Assembly (NCBI GenBank): GCA_010015805.1
Contig: ML978121.1
Span: 868,001 to 932,000, forward strand
Direction of reading: 5' to 3'
Length of the DNA stretch: 64,000 nt
DNA from: Rhizodiscina lignyota
Taxonomy: Eukaryota
Shown here: piece by piece, positions 39,087-63,895 of the stretch
Numbering within the stretch: the stretch's first letter is position 1
Layout: every line of letters begins with the position of its first letter
The notes under the pieces: generated by a model
Seen by the model: the letters and a program-made list of their open reading frames with translations, nothing else
What the model was told of the DNA's origin: nothing
The model's database searches: none
Made by a program: the position numbers and the translations under genes

Positions 39087-40178
39087 TTAGACAAACCTCA
39101 GGTCGCCATCAGAGTTCTCGATTCTCTCATCCAGCCACACTGAATCCTCCCTCCAGTGCCCGTCAACGTTGCACAGCTCCGCAACCAGCACCCTTCCTCC
39201 ATTCTCCAATCTCACATGCCTCGCGCTACCGCCAAAGTTTCCACCATGCGGCACCCACCGGAAGTGCCCATTATCGTTCGTCAGCACCTGGTTCAAGCTA
39301 ATGCTCGACAGCTTCGGACGGCCCGAGATGTCCGAGCAAGACGCAATAAGATCGTAGTCTTTATCCAGGCTCATCTGCGAGCTGCTCGACGAGAAGTTGC
39401 CCCGGAATTGCTGATGGTGCTGCTTGCCATGGTCGTCATCGCTCGAGCTCGACGACGAGGATGAAGAAGACGAGCCGCGCCGTCCCATTGCGATCTTCTG
39501 CGCCTTCTTCTCCGCTTTCTTTTTCTTCCTTTCCTCCTTCACATGGTCTTCGAGCTTGTGCCCGGCATACGCACCACCCAGTGCACCGATGAAACCATGG
39601 CCACCCAGTTTATGGCCTGCATAGCCACCTGCGGCGGCGCCACCGATCGCGCCTAGTAGTCCGCGATCTTGTTCATTAGGGTTAGGCGGCATGCCTGGAG
39701 CGCCCGCAGGTGCACCGAAGGCTGGGTCCATTGAAGGTTGTGCCTGCGGCGGATACCCTTGATGCGGAGGATACGGCTGGTCTCCGGCGAAGCGGTCCTG
39801 TTCAGGCATGCCATAAGTCGATACCGGTGGCGGAGAGCCATATGATGGCGCTGGCGGTGGGGGAGAGCCATAGGAGGAATTATGGTCTTGCGCATATGGC
39901 TGCGGAGCGTGGCCCCCATACCACTGCTGCTGGGGATAGGGTTGCTGATATCCTGCTGGCTCTTGTTGATTGTAGCTATCGCCGCCCTGATAGCCCTGAT
40001 GACCGTAATAGTCGTGGCTGGCACCATGCGGTGCGCCGTATCCCGCTGGCGGAGACTGCTGATATTGGCCTTGCTCTTGTCCATACGGAGGATACTGATT
40101 GTATTGATTCTGCGGCGGATAACCCTGCTGGTACTGGTTGTCGCCTTCGCCGGCGCCATAATTAGGAAGTTGAGTCAT
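39087..40178 (-). CDS. Q/Y/P/G-rich protein with glycine zipper and C-terminal CVNH (cyanovirin-N) domain
   Basis: DRGLLGAIGGAAAGGYAGHK zipper; CVNH GNFSSSS...LIASC...ISLNQVLTNDNGHF...FGGSAR...LDERIENSDGDL. Confidence 0.88.
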   Translation of the reverse strand: MTQLPNYGAGEGDNQYQQGYPPQNQYNQYPPYGQEQGQYQQSPPAGYGAPHGASHDYYGHQGYQGGDSYNQQEPAGYQQPYPQQQWYGGHAPQPYAQDHNSSYGSPPPPAPSYGSPPPVSTYGMPEQDRFAGDQPYPPHQGYPPQAQPSMDPAFGAPAGAPGMPPNPNEQDRGLLGAIGGAAAGGYAGHKLGGHGFIGALGGAYAGHKLEDHVKEERKKKKAEKKAQKIAMGRRGSSSSSSSSSSSDDDHGKQHHQQFRGNFSSSSSQMSLDKDYDLIASCSDISGRPKLSSISLNQVLTNDNGHFRWVPHGGNFGGSARHVRLENGGRVLVAELCNVDGHWREDSVWLDERIENSDGDLRFV

Positions 40179-40784: not shown

Positions 40785-42559
40785 TTATTCATCTTCCTCT
40801 CGTATCGTATCCAAAGCTTTCCTCTTCCGACCTTTCTTCACAGCCGGCATCCTGATCTCCTGGCACAGCTCCCTTCCCAAATACTTCTGCGCTAGACTAA
40901 ACGTCGTGGCGCCTGCATTCAAGACTCTCTGCCTCTTCATCACCGCAACAACATCAGTCTCCTGGATCTGTTTGCGTCCAGCATGCTGCGCGTATGCTCC
41001 CAGATCTTCTCCCAGCTGCTCAAAGAACCAATCTGTTGCCTTTTCAATCTCTAGCAGCGTATCTTTTGACAGCCCAGATTTTGCGCCGCATGCACCATTT
41101 GTACGAGCGAACGTAGTAGCAAGCTTCTTGATGACCGGCAGAGGTAGAGAGGGATATTGAATACCATGCTTTGAAACCTTGAGCTCGCGTCGTTGACGCT
41201 GTTTAAGCTTCGACGGTTCTGCAAGTGGAGGGGGTAATAGTTCGTGAGCTAAAGAGTCCTCACGCAATGGCCGTGGAGTAGGCGCCGTCTCGAGATATGC
41301 TGTCGCTTCATCGATCATGCCATCAACCTCCGCGTCGTCTACACCATCGCTGTGGCCCTCATCGAAAGCGAAGGGTACATTGTCGTCTTCGCCTTCGTCT
41401 GATTGTGCTTGCGCTTCCTCGGGCTCGTCGTCAACGAAGATCGTTGGTGCTAGGCTATTTCGTGGCTTATCCTGAAAGCGGAACTGGAATGTTTCTTCCT
41501 CAACCATGCCAGGAGACGAGGCTATTCCCAAGTCGCTTGGTCGCGATTGACGACGGGAAGCATCGATTAGAGCACGGAATTCTTGCGTGTTTTCGCCACT
41601 AAGCATATATTAGCTCCATGCATAGCCATGTGTGTGAACTTAACCTTACTCTGCCAGGGTACGCCTTGTAACCTCGTCTATCAAGCCACTTATTCCATCT
41701 TCTACGTCTTCCAGGTCCTCTTCCTCGCTCTCGTAATGTCCATGATCTCCGCTATCGTCTCCATCATTCCCAAGTTGCGACAAATCTCCAAGCTTCTCGC
41801 TGAAGAGCTCGCTTGCTCTTACACTACCAAAGCTGTCACGATGTAAGAGGCCCCTGTCTCGTCCTGCTTCCACAGAATGTGTAGTATAATTTTCCTTGTC
41901 CTCCAGATCTACTTCTGACAGTCTTGGCGGTGCCGCGTGGAAGCTGTCATCGTCCTCCAACGCTCCAAGAGGTAGCGAAAGCCGTGGAGGCAGAACCTCG
42001 GGGCCAACATCGAAGTCATCTAGTGCCTTACTCTTTCGTGGAGTCGGAACTGTAACTTGAGGCGATGGCGCAATAGGCTGTGTATTTCTCGCAAGTACTT
42101 TGCTCAATTCTCTGAGCGCGTCTCGCGGTGTCTCCCTCTGCTGCCTTCCACTCCTTCGACGGTTCCTGGCAGGTGTCGCTGCATTCTTCCGCTGCTGTAG
42201 TGCGCGCAGAGCATGTGGCGTCGTAGGCTGTACGCGTCGTGTATTTGGGAATCGTGCGATGGTATTCGGTCGCGGGGTCCGAGATGCTGTTCCTGGTGTA
42301 TGCACAAGGATCCGACTTGCTGAAGCTGGGCGCGAGCTTATCCCAGAGCTAGAAATACGTCGCCCTGGCGTTGATGGCTTTTGGATTAGTCCGGCAAGTT
42401 TGTGGAGCTGTTCATGAACATGAGCGAACGATTTGTTTACAGTAGCTGGCTACAATGGCTTACGTCTTCGTATGGAGTGACCTCTGGCGGTACATTTTCA
42501 TCCTGATTTTCAGAATTGCGCGGCGTGATCTTCGGTCGCTTTCTATCCGGCTCCGCCAT
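40785..42559 (-). CDS. Kinetochore protein CENP-T (Cnp20), C-terminal histone fold
   Basis: PTTPHALRAL, RETPRDALRELSKVL, SKHGIQYPSLP, WFFEQLGEDLGAYAQHAGRKQIQETDV, FSLAQKYL; two introns. Confidence 0.88.
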
Positions 42560-56416: not shown

Positions 56417-57663
56417 TTAAATGCTCTCAATACTTTCTGCGCGATGTCCCTTCAGAGCTTGACAGATTTTGTCCGTGTCATTAATTCCATGCCTTTCCAG
56501 TGCATCTTTACAGTATGCTTCAACCACTGGTCCCCATATGTGCCTCGCTTTATACCGTGCCATGTCCTCTGGCAAAGCCCTTATAGCACCTAGTAACTCC
56601 TTGAGACTTTGAGGCTCGTCTTCCAGCTCGGTGAGTGGAGTGATATATGTGCGGACGAGGAACGCAACAGTATTCGATTTCGGCAGTCGTTGAAAAGTTT
56701 GACGCTCGTACCGCAACCTGATTTCTTTCGCCGTAGGTACTTTAGATTCTGTTGCGAAGGGCTCTTGAATGAAACTCATCCGTGGTTTGAAGGAAGTAGT
56801 TGTATCGCTCAACGGGAGCATCAGCCTTTAAGCGTCGAAAGAAGCTGCGAGCTATCAGAAATCTCTCGATATATTTTTTCAACCTGGGCTGGCATCGCCT
56901 TTCCACTGGCTCTCTCAACTTTTCTTCCCAGCCCGGGACTGTTTCATGGAGATCCATGAGCGACCAGCCAATCCGCTCCTCGAGATGCCAACCAGCTGGT
57001 GCCATACTGTAGCTTGCAAGCCTACAAAAGAGTTAATGGATACGAGTGCAATGCCTCAGCTGACGAAAATGCTGACAGATAGAACTGATTAGGATCAGGA
57101 CCGGCGCCTTGAATCAGGAGATTGATATCCTCCTTAGCCAGTTGTGCCGCAACTTCCAACGGATGGTTCTCATACGGCTCAGCAACCTTGAATGTGCGGC
57201 CGGTAAGAGCATTGTGAACATAATCGGGGTTTTGAGTTGGGCAATAGAACCATTGCGGATATCTTCTCGTCAAGAACGCAACAATTTCTGCAAGGACTTC
57301 TCTACATGCCATCTCCGACCCTGGCAGGGCTTGGAAGACGCCACGACGATTTTCATGCAGCAAATGCCTTCGAAGCTTCTGCTCTTCGAAATAGCGATTG
57401 TCCAGAAGTAACCAATCTTCACGAGGCATCTTCCGAATACCCATCGTCATCACAAACTTTCCAGATCGCCATGGTCGATAAGGCCTTGGCTCAGTGTTGC
57501 GTATGTCGAAGTCCGCATTAGGTTTGAGGCATTCCACATCCAAAGGCTGTGTTGCGGTACCCCGTGCCCATTGTTCTACCAGTGGCTTCCAGTTAGTGAC
57601 TTTTGAACTAAAAAGCAACGAAATAGCTAGCAGCAGTAGAACAATCGCCAGAGTGAGCGACAT
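56417..57663 (-). CDS. DUF3445 / heme-dependent oxidative N-demethylase alpha-like protein
   Basis: PRPYRPW...MTMGIRKM...WLLLD, EDINLL, PAGW...IG..L..LH..VP, VERYNYF, LRYERQTFQRLPKSNTVAFLVRTY; N-terminal hydrophobic segment; two introns. Confidence 0.88.
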
Positions 57664-58389: not shown

Positions 58390-60685
58390 TCAGTTAGTAC
58401 CTGGGCTGAAAGCAGCAGCCATGCTAATCATCTGCTTCGAGCCCTCAATCACCTCCAAGGTCCCGTCGTCCTGGACCCAGTGAGCTTGGAAGCGAATGTT
58501 GAGCCCATCAATAACCATTTTGATCTGCAGCTCCAGTTTGTATTGGCGCTCATTGGAAGTCGTAGGATCGGCAACAACTATCGGTAACTTGTGACGCAGG
58601 TGAGCCGCGTCAAACACGACCTTCGCAGCGACTTCTGAGCGCCTGTTCCTCCGATGCCGTACTGGATAGTTCGAAGCCATAGGACTGTCGGCGACGTAAA
58701 TGATTTCTTCGCATAATAAGGCGGGTTCGTTTAGAGCGAAGTAATGGAGCGACGTAATCACTGGGAAGGTTTCGAACGGTGCGTAAGGTCCGGCACCCTG
58801 CACCAAGCAACGTCAATCTTCAAGCTGAGAAGGGGGTAGATGATCTAAATATACTGACCTTTTGGATAAACCATGTGATTGAGCTGATATACGGTAGTCC
58901 ATCTTTTCCCTTCCAAGGTTGAGCCCCCCTTTGCTGCGGAATACTCTTTTCGTCATGGACCATGTGTCGCAGCAATCCATAGCTGCACTGCGTATATCTG
59001 TCTGGGCCATTTTCCTTGTCTAAAGCCCTAAGAACGGCACCACAAGAGACGGCGTCCTCTACTCCGTACATCATATCGTCTGTCAGATAGAGCAGTCGAG
59101 TCTTCGGAGACGCGACATTCAGTCTGTCCTTCAAGTAGCGAATCAAAGCACGGTTTCTAGCAAATCCGCCGCTGACGATAGCTACCTGTGTACCCGTTAG
59201 CATGTGCTATAAGGCAAATGCAGAAAAGGTTGCAACTCACATCCACGGCAACGCCCTTCACTGCAGCGCTCTCAACCTGTCCAATGAGCAGTGAACTGTT
59301 TTGATTAAAAATGGGCTCGATGATGCGCCTTGTTTCGGTCCTAAAAGTCTAAGTTCACAGTCGACAACACCAGAGGGTTTGTACTTACATAGATATCGTC
59401 CAGACTCCCTGGCTGAACCCCCTATCCTTGTCTTCAGGCAAGCCTGGAAGATCGAACTTGAATTGCAAAGTAGATGGGTCATTGTAGTCCATTTCCGGCT
59501 TATGTATTTCTTCAAATGGAAGTATGATCCGGGATTGCACCACGCTGCGCAGCGTTTGGCCACGTTCTTTGTCCACGATGTATTGTTCGAAGTCTTCCAG
59601 CGTCTCCAGAGCATATTTTTCCATTGCGGCGTTGAGACAGCTGGAACCGCAGACACCACCTATCAAGATTTGTTAGAAAGTCATGAGAATATGAAGAATG
59701 AAAGGGCTTCAAACTAGTTAGAGGCACCACTTCCTTCTTCAGACGCAGGGTCTCTTTTCCCCCCGTCTCCCAGGTGCCGAAGTCTGCTGTGCTGCCGCCT
59801 ATGTCGCCATATGTAAAAGTCTCGGGGATTTCATTCTGGGCCTGTTAGTCTTTTGCAAAGACTTGTGAAAAGTATGTTTCTTACCCCTGGAAGTAAATCT
59901 GGGATTTCCCTAAGCCTTTGGAGCATATAAGTCGCCCCAGCTTCTTGCTCCGTTACGAAGGATAGCCCGACCGCACAGCCATTCGTAACCGGCCCGAAAC
60001 TCTCTCGCTGTATGGCAATATTCATGGCTTGGTGCAGTTCCCTTCTCTCCTTCGCACCGTATATGACTGGCACGGTTAGGACCAGAATGATGGGAATGCC
60101 ATCTTCCAAAATGCCCCTTTCCAGAAGTTGTTCTTTTGTGTGCCTAACGAGGAATGTCAAGTAATCTGCGTGGATGTCCGAAGCCTTCTCTATCTTTCCC
60201 GTCGCCAGAAGCTGTTTCACGTGCTGAGTTATGGCTTTATAAGCTTGCGTTGGCTCCTCTTTTCCGGCGCGCTGTAAGAAAAGGAACTTAATGTCTTTGA
60301 CAGACTGGACTGTATGGATCAGACTGTTTGCTGTTCTTTGAAGGTGCCTGATATCGTATCCCCAGAGGACGTTTTGCGGCATTGATCTTCCAGATGAGGC
60401 ATTTTGAGCCATGATGTGTTGGGCCTCGACATTCAGATATCCCTCTCCCAGTTCCTGGAGTAGCATTTCCCGTTCCCCATAAAAGATTTCAGTAAGAACG
60501 CTCTTACTTCGTGCCCCATATGGTGCTCTGTCACGGGGGAAGTTGGTGATATTTTGAACTCTACTGACTCCTGGATGCCGGTCGTCGTATTTCGCATAGG
60601 CGACTGCACTTTGAGCCATTGCATAATCGATCCCGATTACTAGTTTCTTGTTCCCCGTATTGATCGAAGAATTGCTCTGACTCAT
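58390..60685 (-). CDS. Atypical Hsp70 (HSPA12-like, actin-like ATPase fold)
   Basis: Spliced model with 5 introns: LVIGIDYAMAQSAVAY, LTVPVIY, VTEQEAGA, DIGGSTAD, CGSSCLN, SGGFARN, AVSCGAVLRAL, RYTQCSYG, WFIQKG. Confidence 0.87.
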
Positions 60686-61809
60686 ACTGATCTAAGGTGT
60701 CGAGCGCGGAAAACTCGTTGCTAGAGTGAAGGGAGTGAGTTGAGAACGCAGACTGTGAGGAGAGTAAAAGGTAAATTGAACGCATACCCAACTATATGTT
60801 GATTCTCTCTTGGGTCTTCGAAGTTGTATTTGCCTGTATCTTAGGATGATTGGTGGTGTTCGTTAGGATGAGACGTTAAGAGAGAGGATTGGAAGGGCGA
60901 AGCTGTAAGACCTTAAATAGCAAAGCTATTTTCCAGGTGGCTGGGCGTCTGTAAGTGGAACGTTTGTCGACGGACTCGACGCGTGAAGCGTATTCGCTGT
61001 AAGCGTGAATGGTTCCGCAAGTTGTTTTATAGGATGAGAGAGTGAGACTGCTCATGCAGCTCTTAAGCGATAGATCTCCACTCTCCTGTGCAAGTGAAGA
61101 AGAGCATGTGAAGGTAGCTGAGGCTTGGCTAACAGATCAAGTTTCGAGATTTCATGACTTGTTGGTGCGTGGATATGTTATAAATCTCTGGCACCTTGAC
61201 GAGTTAAAGGAAAGAGAGAGCTTGTAGATGCAAGTGAATAGCAGCAAGTGGATAGCACAGGTGGCGAAGGTAGTTCAATGAGAATAGAACGTGCTCCAAT
61301 TGGCGAGTTCGACGAGTCTTGGAGCCTCCTTGGTGTGAGTGCGAGTATCTCTGGAAGAAGTGGGTGAATTTGTGCAAGGCGAACGGACCTGTCTGGGTAA
61401 GCAGAGTGAAGCTGGCCCAAGAAAGTCAATGACCACTTCCACAAATTATCTGCTATGAATCAAACTTAAAAAAGAAAATGGCTAGCTGATCGCACGTGAG
61501 AAATGCCACGCAATAATTCATTTATTGATAGGCGCCACCATACGTCATCTTCACACAGCATTCGCGCACGAAGACTTTCAAACGGGAGTACATATATTGG
61601 AAACAGAAGATGGCCAAACACAAACTGAAATTTTCCCCGATTGAGTTTTACTTTCTTTACAACCACCAGAGTTTTCGTCTAGCGACCTAATCCTCTTCAT
61701 CTACAAGACCTCAACTTCACCGCATAAGTTCAATCTACATTAAAGTCCGGCCAAGCAGTACATCTCACAGAGCAAAGAGCGTTGAACAGAAAGCAACATC
61801 AACGTTACG

Positions 61810-63895
61810 ATGCCCTGGACCTCGGAGGGCATCGCAATGCTGCTAGCTTATTTGGACAACTGCATCAAACGAAGGAAACAAAACGGCTTTTTCCAGGAGT
61901 CGGTTACTAAATTCCTGAAAAACAGCATTGAGGAGTATTTCACCTGGAAGCAAGTGAGCGCAAAGCTCCGCGCCATCCTGTCGCACTCGCATGGAATTCA
62001 AGGGAAAGTTGCCAAAGCCAGGGGCACCAAAAGTGAAGCAGAGCTAAAAGAGTTAAAGAGCAACTTAATGGGAGAGGCAATGAAAGAGCTAATAGCGAAT
62101 GGCTCCAAGGTGCTTCGCTTTAAAAGATTCGGGAAAGGCTGGACAGGGATCCCAATAAGTCGATCAATGGTAGAGGAGGCGAGCAGGCAAATCGATGCAA
62201 AAAGCCACAGAACCGATAACGAGCGAGACGCATCCGATATCGAGTTGAGAGACGCAGCGCAGAAACTACCATCTGAAAGACATAGGTCTTCACGCGCTCA
62301 AGCAGAGACTTCCGGGAACACCGAAGCTAATAACCATGGCATTTCCGGGACCGAGTCTGTCCATGAGCCTGCGACTAACCACCTCCGGGACCAGCAGAGC
62401 TCCAAAACGCCAGATCACATGGAACCGAACATGCAAAGCAAGAATGTTGCCATAGCAGAACATAGCGATTTAGCTTCGGTTCCAACCAGACCAGTGCCAG
62501 ACATCCGACAGATCGAACCAGATGAAAGCATACAAGATTTGCCACAAGAGAGTCAATGCGAGGGTTCTTTGATCCATGGGGCAAAAGATCACGGTCAAGT
62601 CCAAGAGTCGTCGAAGGGAGCCTCAGAACTGGATCAGCGGGCCACGCCATCTAATACAAGAGAAAAAGCGGTAGACGATCAGCTCAAACGGATGGAGGAA
62701 CGGATAGCTCAGACGGGGGATGAGTACAAAGAGATTCTCAACTTGCTGCGTTCGCAACAGTATAGAGGCCAAAAAGAGCAGAGTATTCCGAACGACCCAA
62801 CAAACATACTTCAGACCACGCGAGACGAGTATGCATCGATCCTCGCCAAAAAGGACGAAGAAATCAACGATCTTCGAAACCAACTGAATGATGCACAGAA
62901 CGCAGCAAGATATGTGGGAGAAGTGAGCGAAATTAACCATCAAATCCATGTCGAGCAACCCATGGCCGTTATTTTCGAGACACGTATCAAGCAGGCGGCC
63001 CAGGCTATCTCCGTGAATTTGTCGAAACCACTTCAGAATCCGAGACCAGGATCCGTCGCAGCTAGACTGCTGATACGTGCTTGCACCGGTAGACCAGAGA
63101 GTCTCTGTACAGGTGTGCCGACATTGGATATAATGAACATGGACCCACAGGCAGTAGTACGTGCGCTTGTCGCTGCATTTGTCCAAGAACAGGTGTTCGA
63201 AGAAGAGTGGCCAAAGTTTGATCAGGATGAGTCACGTCTCTTGAAGTACTCTCGGGAATTCATTGCTTCCCAAGACGGTAATTCCTTCAAACCCTGGGCC
63301 AGACGACTCGAAGCTCGATACTGACATGATATTAGGAGGCTTGAAATTTATCCAAGTCGTCAACCACATAGCGCACAAGAAGCTAGTTAATGAAGCATCG
63401 TTCAAAACAGAAATGGTTGCCGGGAAAGTAGGGCGGCTGATGATCTTACTCTTGGAAGTCCTGGCCGATATCATTTCGCCCAAAAAGGATAACGAGACTC
63501 CGGACATAGGCGCAAACTGTATTCTTCCGATGCCATCCGAACACCTCCTCTATAGCTCGATGCACAAGGCATTGCTCCTCAAAACTCAGGTCCTTCTGAG
63601 TCCCAACATCTTCAGGTCGTACCATGTCCCTGCAGGTACACAGTTCAACCCAAAATTCATGAAGATGGAGACGAAGAACATGGTAGTGGAGGAGTTGGAA
63701 GTCGGTGCCGATGCAGTTGTAAAGTTGTGCTTATCGCCGGCGATTCTCTACTGGGACGGGCTGAAGACACCGGAAGGACGTGGGAGATACGAGCAAGTAG
63801 CATTTCGCTACAGCACATTCTGGCCCTGGGATCCACATGACGAGAGTCAGAAAGATCCTTATTGCCACTCCAAGGCGATTGTCATTATCGAGTAG
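61810..63895 (+). CDS. Hypothetical protein: Myb/SANT-like N-terminus, disordered linker, coiled coil, helical domain, GrpE-like C-terminus
   Basis: ORF 61810-63324 joined via an intron (about 63277-63336, CTGAC branch) to ORF 63263-63895. N-terminus WTSEGIAMLL...FTWKQVSAKLR; C-terminus PAGTQFNPKFM...VKLCLSPAI...HSKAIVII. Confidence 0.8.

Follow-up and report, generated by a model that had tools for sequence, protein, structure and literature searches.

A head-to-head gene pair of Rhizodiscina lignyota, located in a 64-kb stretch of contig ML978121.1 that was analysed as a whole (the window), encodes a divergent ATPase of the HSPA12-type Hsp70 group, P0002, and a coiled-coil protein, P0001, of which the last ~95 residues plausibly have a GrpE-like fold. 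The latter assignment is derived from predicted structures and is held with somewhat more confidence than doubt, because three independent weak signals, coming from two structure aligners and an in-register profile alignment, agree with one another. It is strengthened by the position of the P0001 gene, since adjoining an Hsp70-family gene is rare for an unrelated gene. A physical, GrpE-like working relationship of P0001 with the neighbouring P0002 is a more tentative proposition, which we regard as the likeliest of the explanations considered, though at less than even odds. HSPA12-type proteins are widespread atypical Hsp70s, with expansions in fungi and bivalves and with links to mammalian disease, and we know of no cofactor described for HSPA12; the open-access literature searched yielded no account of a GrpE-like partner of such proteins. 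In a 2026 review, the function of HspA12 is called "presently unknown" (PMC13580251). If the GrpE-like relationship is true, the linked partner would provide the first concrete hypothesis for the cycling or targeting of an HSPA12-type ATPase, and the pair would offer a simple two-protein test system.

Both genes are intact, encode 675 amino acids each and lie on divergent strands (Table 1). All five introns of the P0002 gene show GT..AG borders and are 48-61 nt long; the junction of exons 2 and 3 uses the donor GTTTGA at 59714 and is in frame in the deposited model. The P0001 gene has a single intron of 58 nt (63278-63335). Spliced translation of the minus strand gives P0002 letter for letter, and that of the plus strand is identical to P0001. 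The original prediction, which had described two divergent genes at these coordinates with a 1.1-kb spacer and had quoted the strings PAGTQFNPKFM, VVKLCLSPAI and SKAIVII from the C-terminus of one product, is confirmed in these respects, as all three strings are present in the P0001 translation. The spacer presumably holds the promoters of both genes. No further copies of either family were found within the window.

The identity of P0002 becomes apparent at the level of its family. On its own, the protein gives no Pfam match at E ≤ 10 and no sequence match in the PDB, and its residues 490-675 carry no Pfam domain, a canonical lid or substrate-binding domain (SBD) not being detected there. A word-based database search returned three relatives (P0003-P0005), all of them from Sclerotiniaceae, which share 28-29% identity with P0002 by BLASTP and 30% in alignment A2, composed of P0002 and these three proteins (four sequences). 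PF00012 is matched by the three relatives at a borderline level around the gathering score (E 8.6e-5 to 7.5e-3), and the profile built from A2 detects the nucleotide-binding domain (NBD) of DnaK in the PDB with E=1.8e-5 (positions 314-543, ~230 in all); mortalin and further Hsp70s rank next. In the ESM Atlas, P0002 is placed with fungal clusters named "Hsp70-like / actin-like ATPase" and with a chordate HSPA12A cluster at a feature score of 0.96-0.98, and the predicted structure of residues 7-667 matches a "Heat shock 70 kDa protein 12A" cluster with a template modelling (TM) score of 0.68-0.72; the features and the structure are counted here as one source. Because the A2 profile, the PF00012 matches of the relatives and the ESM Atlas placement point in the same direction, the earlier label of an HSPA12-type Hsp70 is fair, and its description as a divergent HSPA12-type Hsp70 NBD protein is supported.

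Relatives of P0002 were also sought in bacterial genomes and in metagenomes. Bacterial relatives were not found among 853 genomes sampled: the A2 profile gave no match at E ≤ 1e-6 in two phyla (0/301 and 0/301 genomes), and P0003 as a query produced marginal matches of ~5e-4 in 2 of 251 genomes. Among five genomes, one match was the second Hsp70 of a planctomycete. A metagenome scan with A2 returned 593 pattern matches, with zero relatives among them.

P0001 belongs to a sparse family that is so far known only from filamentous ascomycetes. Out of 1.84 billion representatives searched exhaustively with HMMER, 25 other proteins were retrieved at E ≤ 0.001, three of them at E ≤ 1e-10. Organism names are available for 17 of the 25, and all 17 are "hypothetical proteins" of filamentous ascomycetes, namely Dothideomycetes, Xylariales, Leotiomycetes and one Fusarium; two are paralogues from R. 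lignyota itself. For P0017, a metagenome scan produced 130 pattern matches and zero relatives. In Pfam, P0001 shows only coiled-coil noise, and its C-terminal 185 amino acids have no sequence match in the PDB; the profile of the family alignment, A1, likewise yields only coiled-coil noise against the PDB, where the GrpE structure 4ani appears at E=0.43 by way of the coiled coil. The nearest relatives, P0006 and P0010, are 51% and 42% identical to P0001 over residues 584-675 and 407-495, respectively; both are short gene calls, probably two pieces of a single orthologue from a close relative. Another member, P0028 from Xylaria curta, has an FGE-sulfatase domain (E=7e-9) at residues 621-691, where the last strand would normally lie, probably the result of a merged gene model on its 8.1-kb contig.

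The AlphaFold model of P0001 has a mean predicted local distance difference test (pLDDT) score of 73.7, and its architecture agrees with A1. A conserved helical N-terminal domain, with 10-residue block means of pLDDT of 81-96 over residues 1-140 and 74 over residues 141-150, is followed by a linker predicted to be disordered, by an antiparallel coiled-coil hairpin and by a C-terminal domain composed of a helical and a beta part. The long helical or coiled-coil region that the original prediction had seen ahead of the C-terminus corresponds to the two helices of the hairpin, at residues 279-323 and 331-374. Across the family, conservation is highest in the C-terminal domain rather than in the N-terminus. 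The helical part of this C-terminal domain carries the conserved block "...VFE..FP.F....S.LL..YRE....Q.G...L...D..AH", and its beta part the motif with the family consensus PGTxFNPxTM, in which F593 (F103 of the exon-2 product) is nearly invariant and M598 (M108) invariant.

This motif is the basis of the likeness to GrpE at the sequence level. As a reference, 30 bacterial and archaeal GrpE proteins were taken from dnaK loci, all 30 of which match PF01025. When the exon-2 region of the P0001 family was aligned to them by HHalign, PGTxFNPxTM was placed on the GrpE pattern G..FDP..H with a score of 23.9 (P=0.0059, probability 6.3%). Column-shuffled GrpE controls scored 10.3 +/- 1.9 on average and 18.1 at most, so that 0 of 150 reached 23.9, and the reversed profile scored 12.6. 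Among 12 families compiled from open reading frames (ORFs) of dnaK loci, GrpE was the best match at 23.4, the runner-up scoring 17.1. Alignment of the helix-plus-beta part to 48 GrpE proteins gave a score of 24.6 (P=0.0018, probability 14.9%), which was reached by none of 100 shuffles. The two families have their invariant residues at the same places, namely the Phe and the Met/His position; the P0001 family has Met where the GrpE signature G-x-x-F-D-P-x-x-H has its invariant His, and this His is absent.

Structure comparison was performed with a separate model, mc86fd9b61995, in which the exon-2 product alone (residues 491-675, 185 amino acids) was folded with 19 relatives at a pLDDT of 80. 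A Foldseek search of 350,542 PDB chains with this model placed GrpE at each of the first three ranks, at E values of 0.4-1.3 (9a81_A, E=0.40; GrpEL1 9bls_C, 0.61; GrpEL1 9blt_C, 1.3), and further GrpE chains, 9bls_B and 1dkg_B, at ranks 6 and 9. In VIA-align against 48,161 representative chains, GrpEL1 took rank 2 (Z 5.8) and E. coli GrpE rank 7 (Z 5.2). Among the best 50 VIA-align rows, four extend past model residue 100, of which two are GrpE and the others a phage T7 tail protein and Cep63-Cep152; the remaining rows all end by model residue 92. A second look comprising 44 rows contained five that extend into the beta part, and all five are GrpE from human, E. coli or Thermus: human GrpEL1 9bls_B (Z 5.8) and 9blt_C (Z 5.4), E. 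coli GrpE 1dkg_B (Z 5.2), Thermus GrpE 3a6m_B (Z 4.6) and the GrpE-DnaK integrative model 9a81_A (Z 3.8). For 9blt_C, model residues 92..185 were superposed on chain residues 160..214, almost the whole GrpEL1 beta domain, with a root-mean-square deviation (rmsd) of 2.0 Å over 49 residues. GrpE is thus the top solved-structure match of two aligners for the beta part of the P0001 C-terminal domain. With the whole P0001 model, Foldseek reported nothing at E ≤ 0.001, and the wide and second-look lists of VIA-align were filled by coiled-coil hairpins; in the region of the P0001 hairpin, VIA-align matched helical hairpins alone (Z 9-10).

Several observations weigh against a relationship to GrpE. 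PF01025 was not found at E ≤ 10 in P0001, in its exon-2 piece or in five short relatives, nor is it among the 25 families listed of 72 in a Pfam scan of 26 family members. HHalign probabilities reach only 6-15% with the C-terminal parts, and with full-length alignments the coiled coils alone are aligned (probability 19% and 2%). Only ~19 columns around the motif align confidently, and the register downstream of them differs between HHalign runs. None of the Foldseek matches to GrpE is significant (E 0.4-2.6, TM about 0.2), and the Z scores for GrpE stay under the VIA-align caution mark of 8, below which a match possibly reflects a common arrangement alone. P0001 has a helical bundle of ~190 residues between coiled coil and beta domain that GrpE does not have. 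The head-to-head adjacency is a single observation made at this one locus, and the two R. lignyota paralogues of P0001 sit on another contig. The prediction of a GrpE-like C-terminus therefore stands in part: the top three Foldseek ranks and a motif in register above its controls speak for it, whereas every score is below the customary marks of significance and the GrpE family of Pfam is not matched. A complex prediction for P0002 with P0001 residues 380-675, run without alignments or controls, gave ipSAE values of 0.00 and 0.01, the mark being 0.34, and is evidence neither way.

The same sub-threshold scores, the missing Pfam match and the adjacency seen once leave room for a different explanation, in which the two genes are unrelated neighbours and P0001 ends in an alpha/beta module specific to its family, perhaps related to the C-terminal domain of plant GIL1/IRKI/COST1 (DUF641) or of MIEAP, with a target such as a GTPase or a membrane; the likeness to GrpE would then be a generic arrangement or convergence. 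In the ESM Atlas, unnamed ascomycete clusters are nearest to P0001 residues 400-675, and the nearest named clusters, which carry PF24994 GIL1_IRKI_C with PF04859 DUF641, PF16026 MIEAP or a basidiomycete MMR_HSR1 GTPase, point to partners other than an Hsp70 (TM 0.50-0.55, feature score 0.77-0.82), a further point that weighs against the GrpE relationship. According to a 2026 study, in which the question of non-plant counterparts is raised, COST1, a protein of the DUF641 group, forms dimers and stimulates the GTPase RHD3 (PMC13189119); as a regulator of this NTPase, it supports the view that such a domain serves other NTPases. However, the ESM Atlas rows fall below the bar for naming, with feature scores in a range that is a "lead only", and Pfam matches to PF24994 and PF16026 were not seen at E ≤ 10. 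Moreover, two aligners rank GrpE first among solved structures for the beta part, and an unrelated gene that resembles GrpE would be an unlikely coincidence beside an Hsp70-type gene. We therefore consider unrelated neighbours a doubtful explanation, though one to be taken seriously. The COST1 parallel could alternatively indicate a wider GrpE-like class. A broad proposal along these lines would be that in fungi a gene adjacent to that of the HSPA12-type ATPase encodes a distant GrpE-like coiled-coil factor dedicated to its exchange or anchoring, that this factor is fused in filamentous ascomycetes to a Myb/SANT-like tether to DNA or chromatin, and that the same C-terminal domain occurs in plant DUF641/COST1-type and MIEAP-type proteins as part of a wider GrpE-like class of NTPase regulators; taken as a whole, this proposal is unlikely to hold in full.

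If P0001 is a GrpE-like partner of P0002, the likeliest mechanism would be as follows. P0002 would consist of an NBD and a non-canonical C-terminal domain, without a canonical substrate-binding lid. P0001 would dimerise via its coiled coil, and its GrpE-like beta "wing" would dock on the ATPase domain of P0002, where it would regulate the nucleotide state of P0002 or hold P0002 in place. The N-terminal module of P0001 would serve to target the complex, with DNA or chromatin as a possible destination. The ATP loops of P0002 bear on the kind of regulation to be expected. The phosphate-2 loop (DxGGGT in Hsp70, DIGGSTAD here) and the adenosine loop (GG in Hsp70, VSGGFARN here) are kept, whereas phosphate-1 (DxGTT) is not: in A2, P0002 has GIDYAMAQS where the three Sclerotiniaceae relatives have GLDYGTTFTS, so that AMA replaces GTT. 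In Hsp70, the GTT residues of this loop hold the beta and gamma phosphates of ATP. Because they are replaced, P0002 may bind or hydrolyse ATP poorly, as a pseudo-ATPase or weak binder. Nucleotide hydrolysis by P0002, and hence the need for exchange, appears doubtful from its sequence, which counts against a strictly GrpE-like role; the degenerate loop therefore suggests that docking or regulation is to be favoured over classical nucleotide exchange.

The N-terminus of P0001 had been described as Myb/SANT-like, a claim that is weakly supported. Residues 5-20, 25-40 and 46-60 form three predicted helices with block-mean pLDDT of 81-95, a candidate Myb/SANT-like module in which A1 shows the family pattern W..E...LLAWLD.C...F..TV..L....FT..QV..KL with a conserved W...F...(L/W). 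At E ≤ 10, PF04504 GeBP-like_DBD is matched by two out of the 26 proteins of the family (best E=0.038), and the located match, at residues 17-79 of P0022, is below the 29.5-bit cut-off. P0001 itself has no Myb/SANT-type Pfam match, and a PDB sequence search with its residues 1-110 returned an irrelevant match only (E=0.55). A Myb/SANT-like N-terminus is possible. The three helices opening the conserved N-terminal domain, the GeBP-like_DBD matches and the divergent gene arrangement would also fit a DNA-binding regulator, in which this N-terminus is combined with a coiled-coil dimeriser and which governs transcription from the shared 1.1-kb spacer or elsewhere, so that the link between the two genes is regulatory and not physical. 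Such a role appears improbable, given the lack of relevant Pfam and PDB matches for the N-terminus of P0001 and the fact that the family is conserved best in its C-terminal domain, not in the N-terminus.

Some het loci are known to consist of two genes in divergent layout, and the original prediction had also pointed to fungal allorecognition. Under this explanation, the pair would be an allorecognition or conflict locus, a divergent and fast-evolving two-gene system as in het loci. Both families are indeed patchy and fast-evolving, their relatives being 18-30% identical except for one 142-residue fragment at 47%, and P0001 has paralogues in the same genome. However, no HET, NACHT/NB-ARC, HeLo-type or other known incompatibility domain was detected in either protein of the pair or in those ORFs of the surroundings that were scanned, whose character is metabolic or housekeeping, and PADLOC gave zero matches for P0001, P0002 and P0003. 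An allorecognition locus is thus very improbable, and this part of the original prediction is not upheld. The neighbouring ORFs encode a protein like haem-dependent oxidative N-demethylase (HODM), a short-chain dehydrogenase, a histidine phosphatase, CENP-T and a CVNH protein; those with coordinates are listed in Table 1, together with a long open frame.

Table 1. Features of the gene pair and its surroundings (positions in the window), and GrpE genes of Planctomycetota and of locus L147 used for comparison (positions in their own loci, given by L numbers).
Feature	Position	Strand	Basis or details
ATPase gene P0002 (NA57DRAFT_70177)	60685..58390	-	six exons, 675 aa
P0002 exons, stop included	60685-59885, 59835-59715, 59659-59389, 59340-59241, 59185-58859, 58797-58390	-	spliced translation
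Degenerate phosphate-1 loop of P0002, GIDYAMAQSAVAY	60611..60649	-	alignment A2; relatives GLDYGTTFTS(V/I)SY
Divergent intergenic spacer, ATG to ATG	60686..61809	.	1124 bp, 45% GC; sequence
Partner gene P0001 (NA57DRAFT_50822)	61810..63895	+	two exons, 61810-63277 and 63336-63895, stop included
Conserved helical N-terminal domain of P0001, residues 1-150	61810..62259	+	model, A1
Poorly conserved linker, predicted disordered, residues 153-265	62266..62604	+	pLDDT <50; variable in A1
Antiparallel coiled-coil hairpin, residues 267-374	62608..62931	+	model helices
Helical part of conserved C-terminal domain, residues 383-576, split by intron	62956..63595	+	model, A1
C-terminal beta domain, residues 581-675, GrpE-like by predicted fold	63608..63892	+	model pLDDT 80
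Motif PAGTQFNPKFM, residues 588-598	63629..63661	+	placed by HHalign on GrpE G..FDP..H
Haem-dependent oxidative N-demethylase alpha-subunit-like, two-exon	56417-57663	-	PF11927, E 6e-28 and 1e-22; just downstream of P0002 gene
Open frame of 620 aa	52405-54267	+	zero Pfam matches at E ≤ 0.1
CENP-T histone-fold protein, neighbour farther upstream	40785-41606	-	
CVNH-domain protein with glycine-zipper segment, neighbour farther upstream	39087-40178	-	
FDPxxM GrpE paralogues, 279-344 aa	L122/L123 132-971; L125 868-1767; L140 1444-2475; L146 907-1803	L140 -	
GrpE of 599 aa, then Hsp70 gene	L147 4-1800 and 1800-2816		PF01025 at residues 409-586; stop overlaps Hsp70 start

In the ESM Atlas, P0002 groups by features and predicted structure with vertebrate HSPA12A/HSPA12B and the fungal "Hsp70-like / actin-like ATPase" expansions. 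A canonical lid/SBD is not detected in it, which is a further likeness to them, and it differs in its degenerate phosphate-1 loop. The plant DUF641 proteins GIL1, IRKI and COST1 (PF04859 and PF24994) resemble P0001 in combining a coiled coil with a C-terminal domain, and the clusters carrying PF24994 match it with a TM of 0.50-0.53 in the ESM Atlas, which is a lead only. Unlike what is proposed for P0001, the NTPase of COST1 is a dynamin-like GTPase, and no sequence-level match was found between the two.

The closest parallel for P0001 is with GrpE, Mge1 and GRPEL1 (PF01025; 1DKG, 3A6M, 9BLS and 9BLT), in which a coiled coil and helices lead to a small, six-stranded beta domain at the C-terminus; a coiled coil, helices and a small terminal beta domain are likewise predicted for P0001. 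This predicted beta domain of P0001 superposes on that of GrpEL1 (2.0 Å, 49 residues, Z 5.4), the motif G..F[DN]P..[HM] is in register, and the gene adjoins an Hsp70-family gene. In contrast to GrpE, P0001 does not match PF01025, has Met for the invariant His, carries an insertion inside the beta domain and reaches 675 amino acids, including an additional domain at its N-terminus; its location is presumably the cytosol or nucleus rather than an organelle, and its neighbour is an HSPA12-type ATPase rather than a canonical Hsp70. The dimerisation helices and four-helix bundle of GrpE would find their counterpart in the predicted hairpin 279-374 and the bundle 383-576 of P0001, the arrangement of which is different.

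A second parallel is found among GrpE paralogues of Planctomycetota that have the FDPxxM variant. All four match PF01025 (E 1e-16 to 1e-22), and each immediately precedes a second Hsp70 gene, which matches PF00012. A further GrpE, that of L147, carries an N-terminal extension of roughly 400 residues. When these Met-variant paralogues were tried as a bridge between the P0001 domain and GrpE, the HHalign score was not raised (23.6, probability 3.8%) and was no better than that with canonical GrpE, the union of 34 GrpE proteins giving 25.9 and 10%; the bridge was thus rejected. This comparison set, L147 included, differs from the R. lignyota pair in its clear PF01025 matches (E 1e-16 to 1e-25), its clear PF00012 Hsp70s and its organisation in same-strand operons. 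It resembles P0001 in the pairing of the GrpE gene with an Hsp70 gene, in the Met at the His position and, for L147, in the long N-terminal extension. The Planctomycetota paralogues, together with the L147 protein, thereby establish that true GrpE proteins can have Met at the His position and that dedicated GrpE-Hsp70 gene pairs and long coiled-coil forms of GrpE exist.

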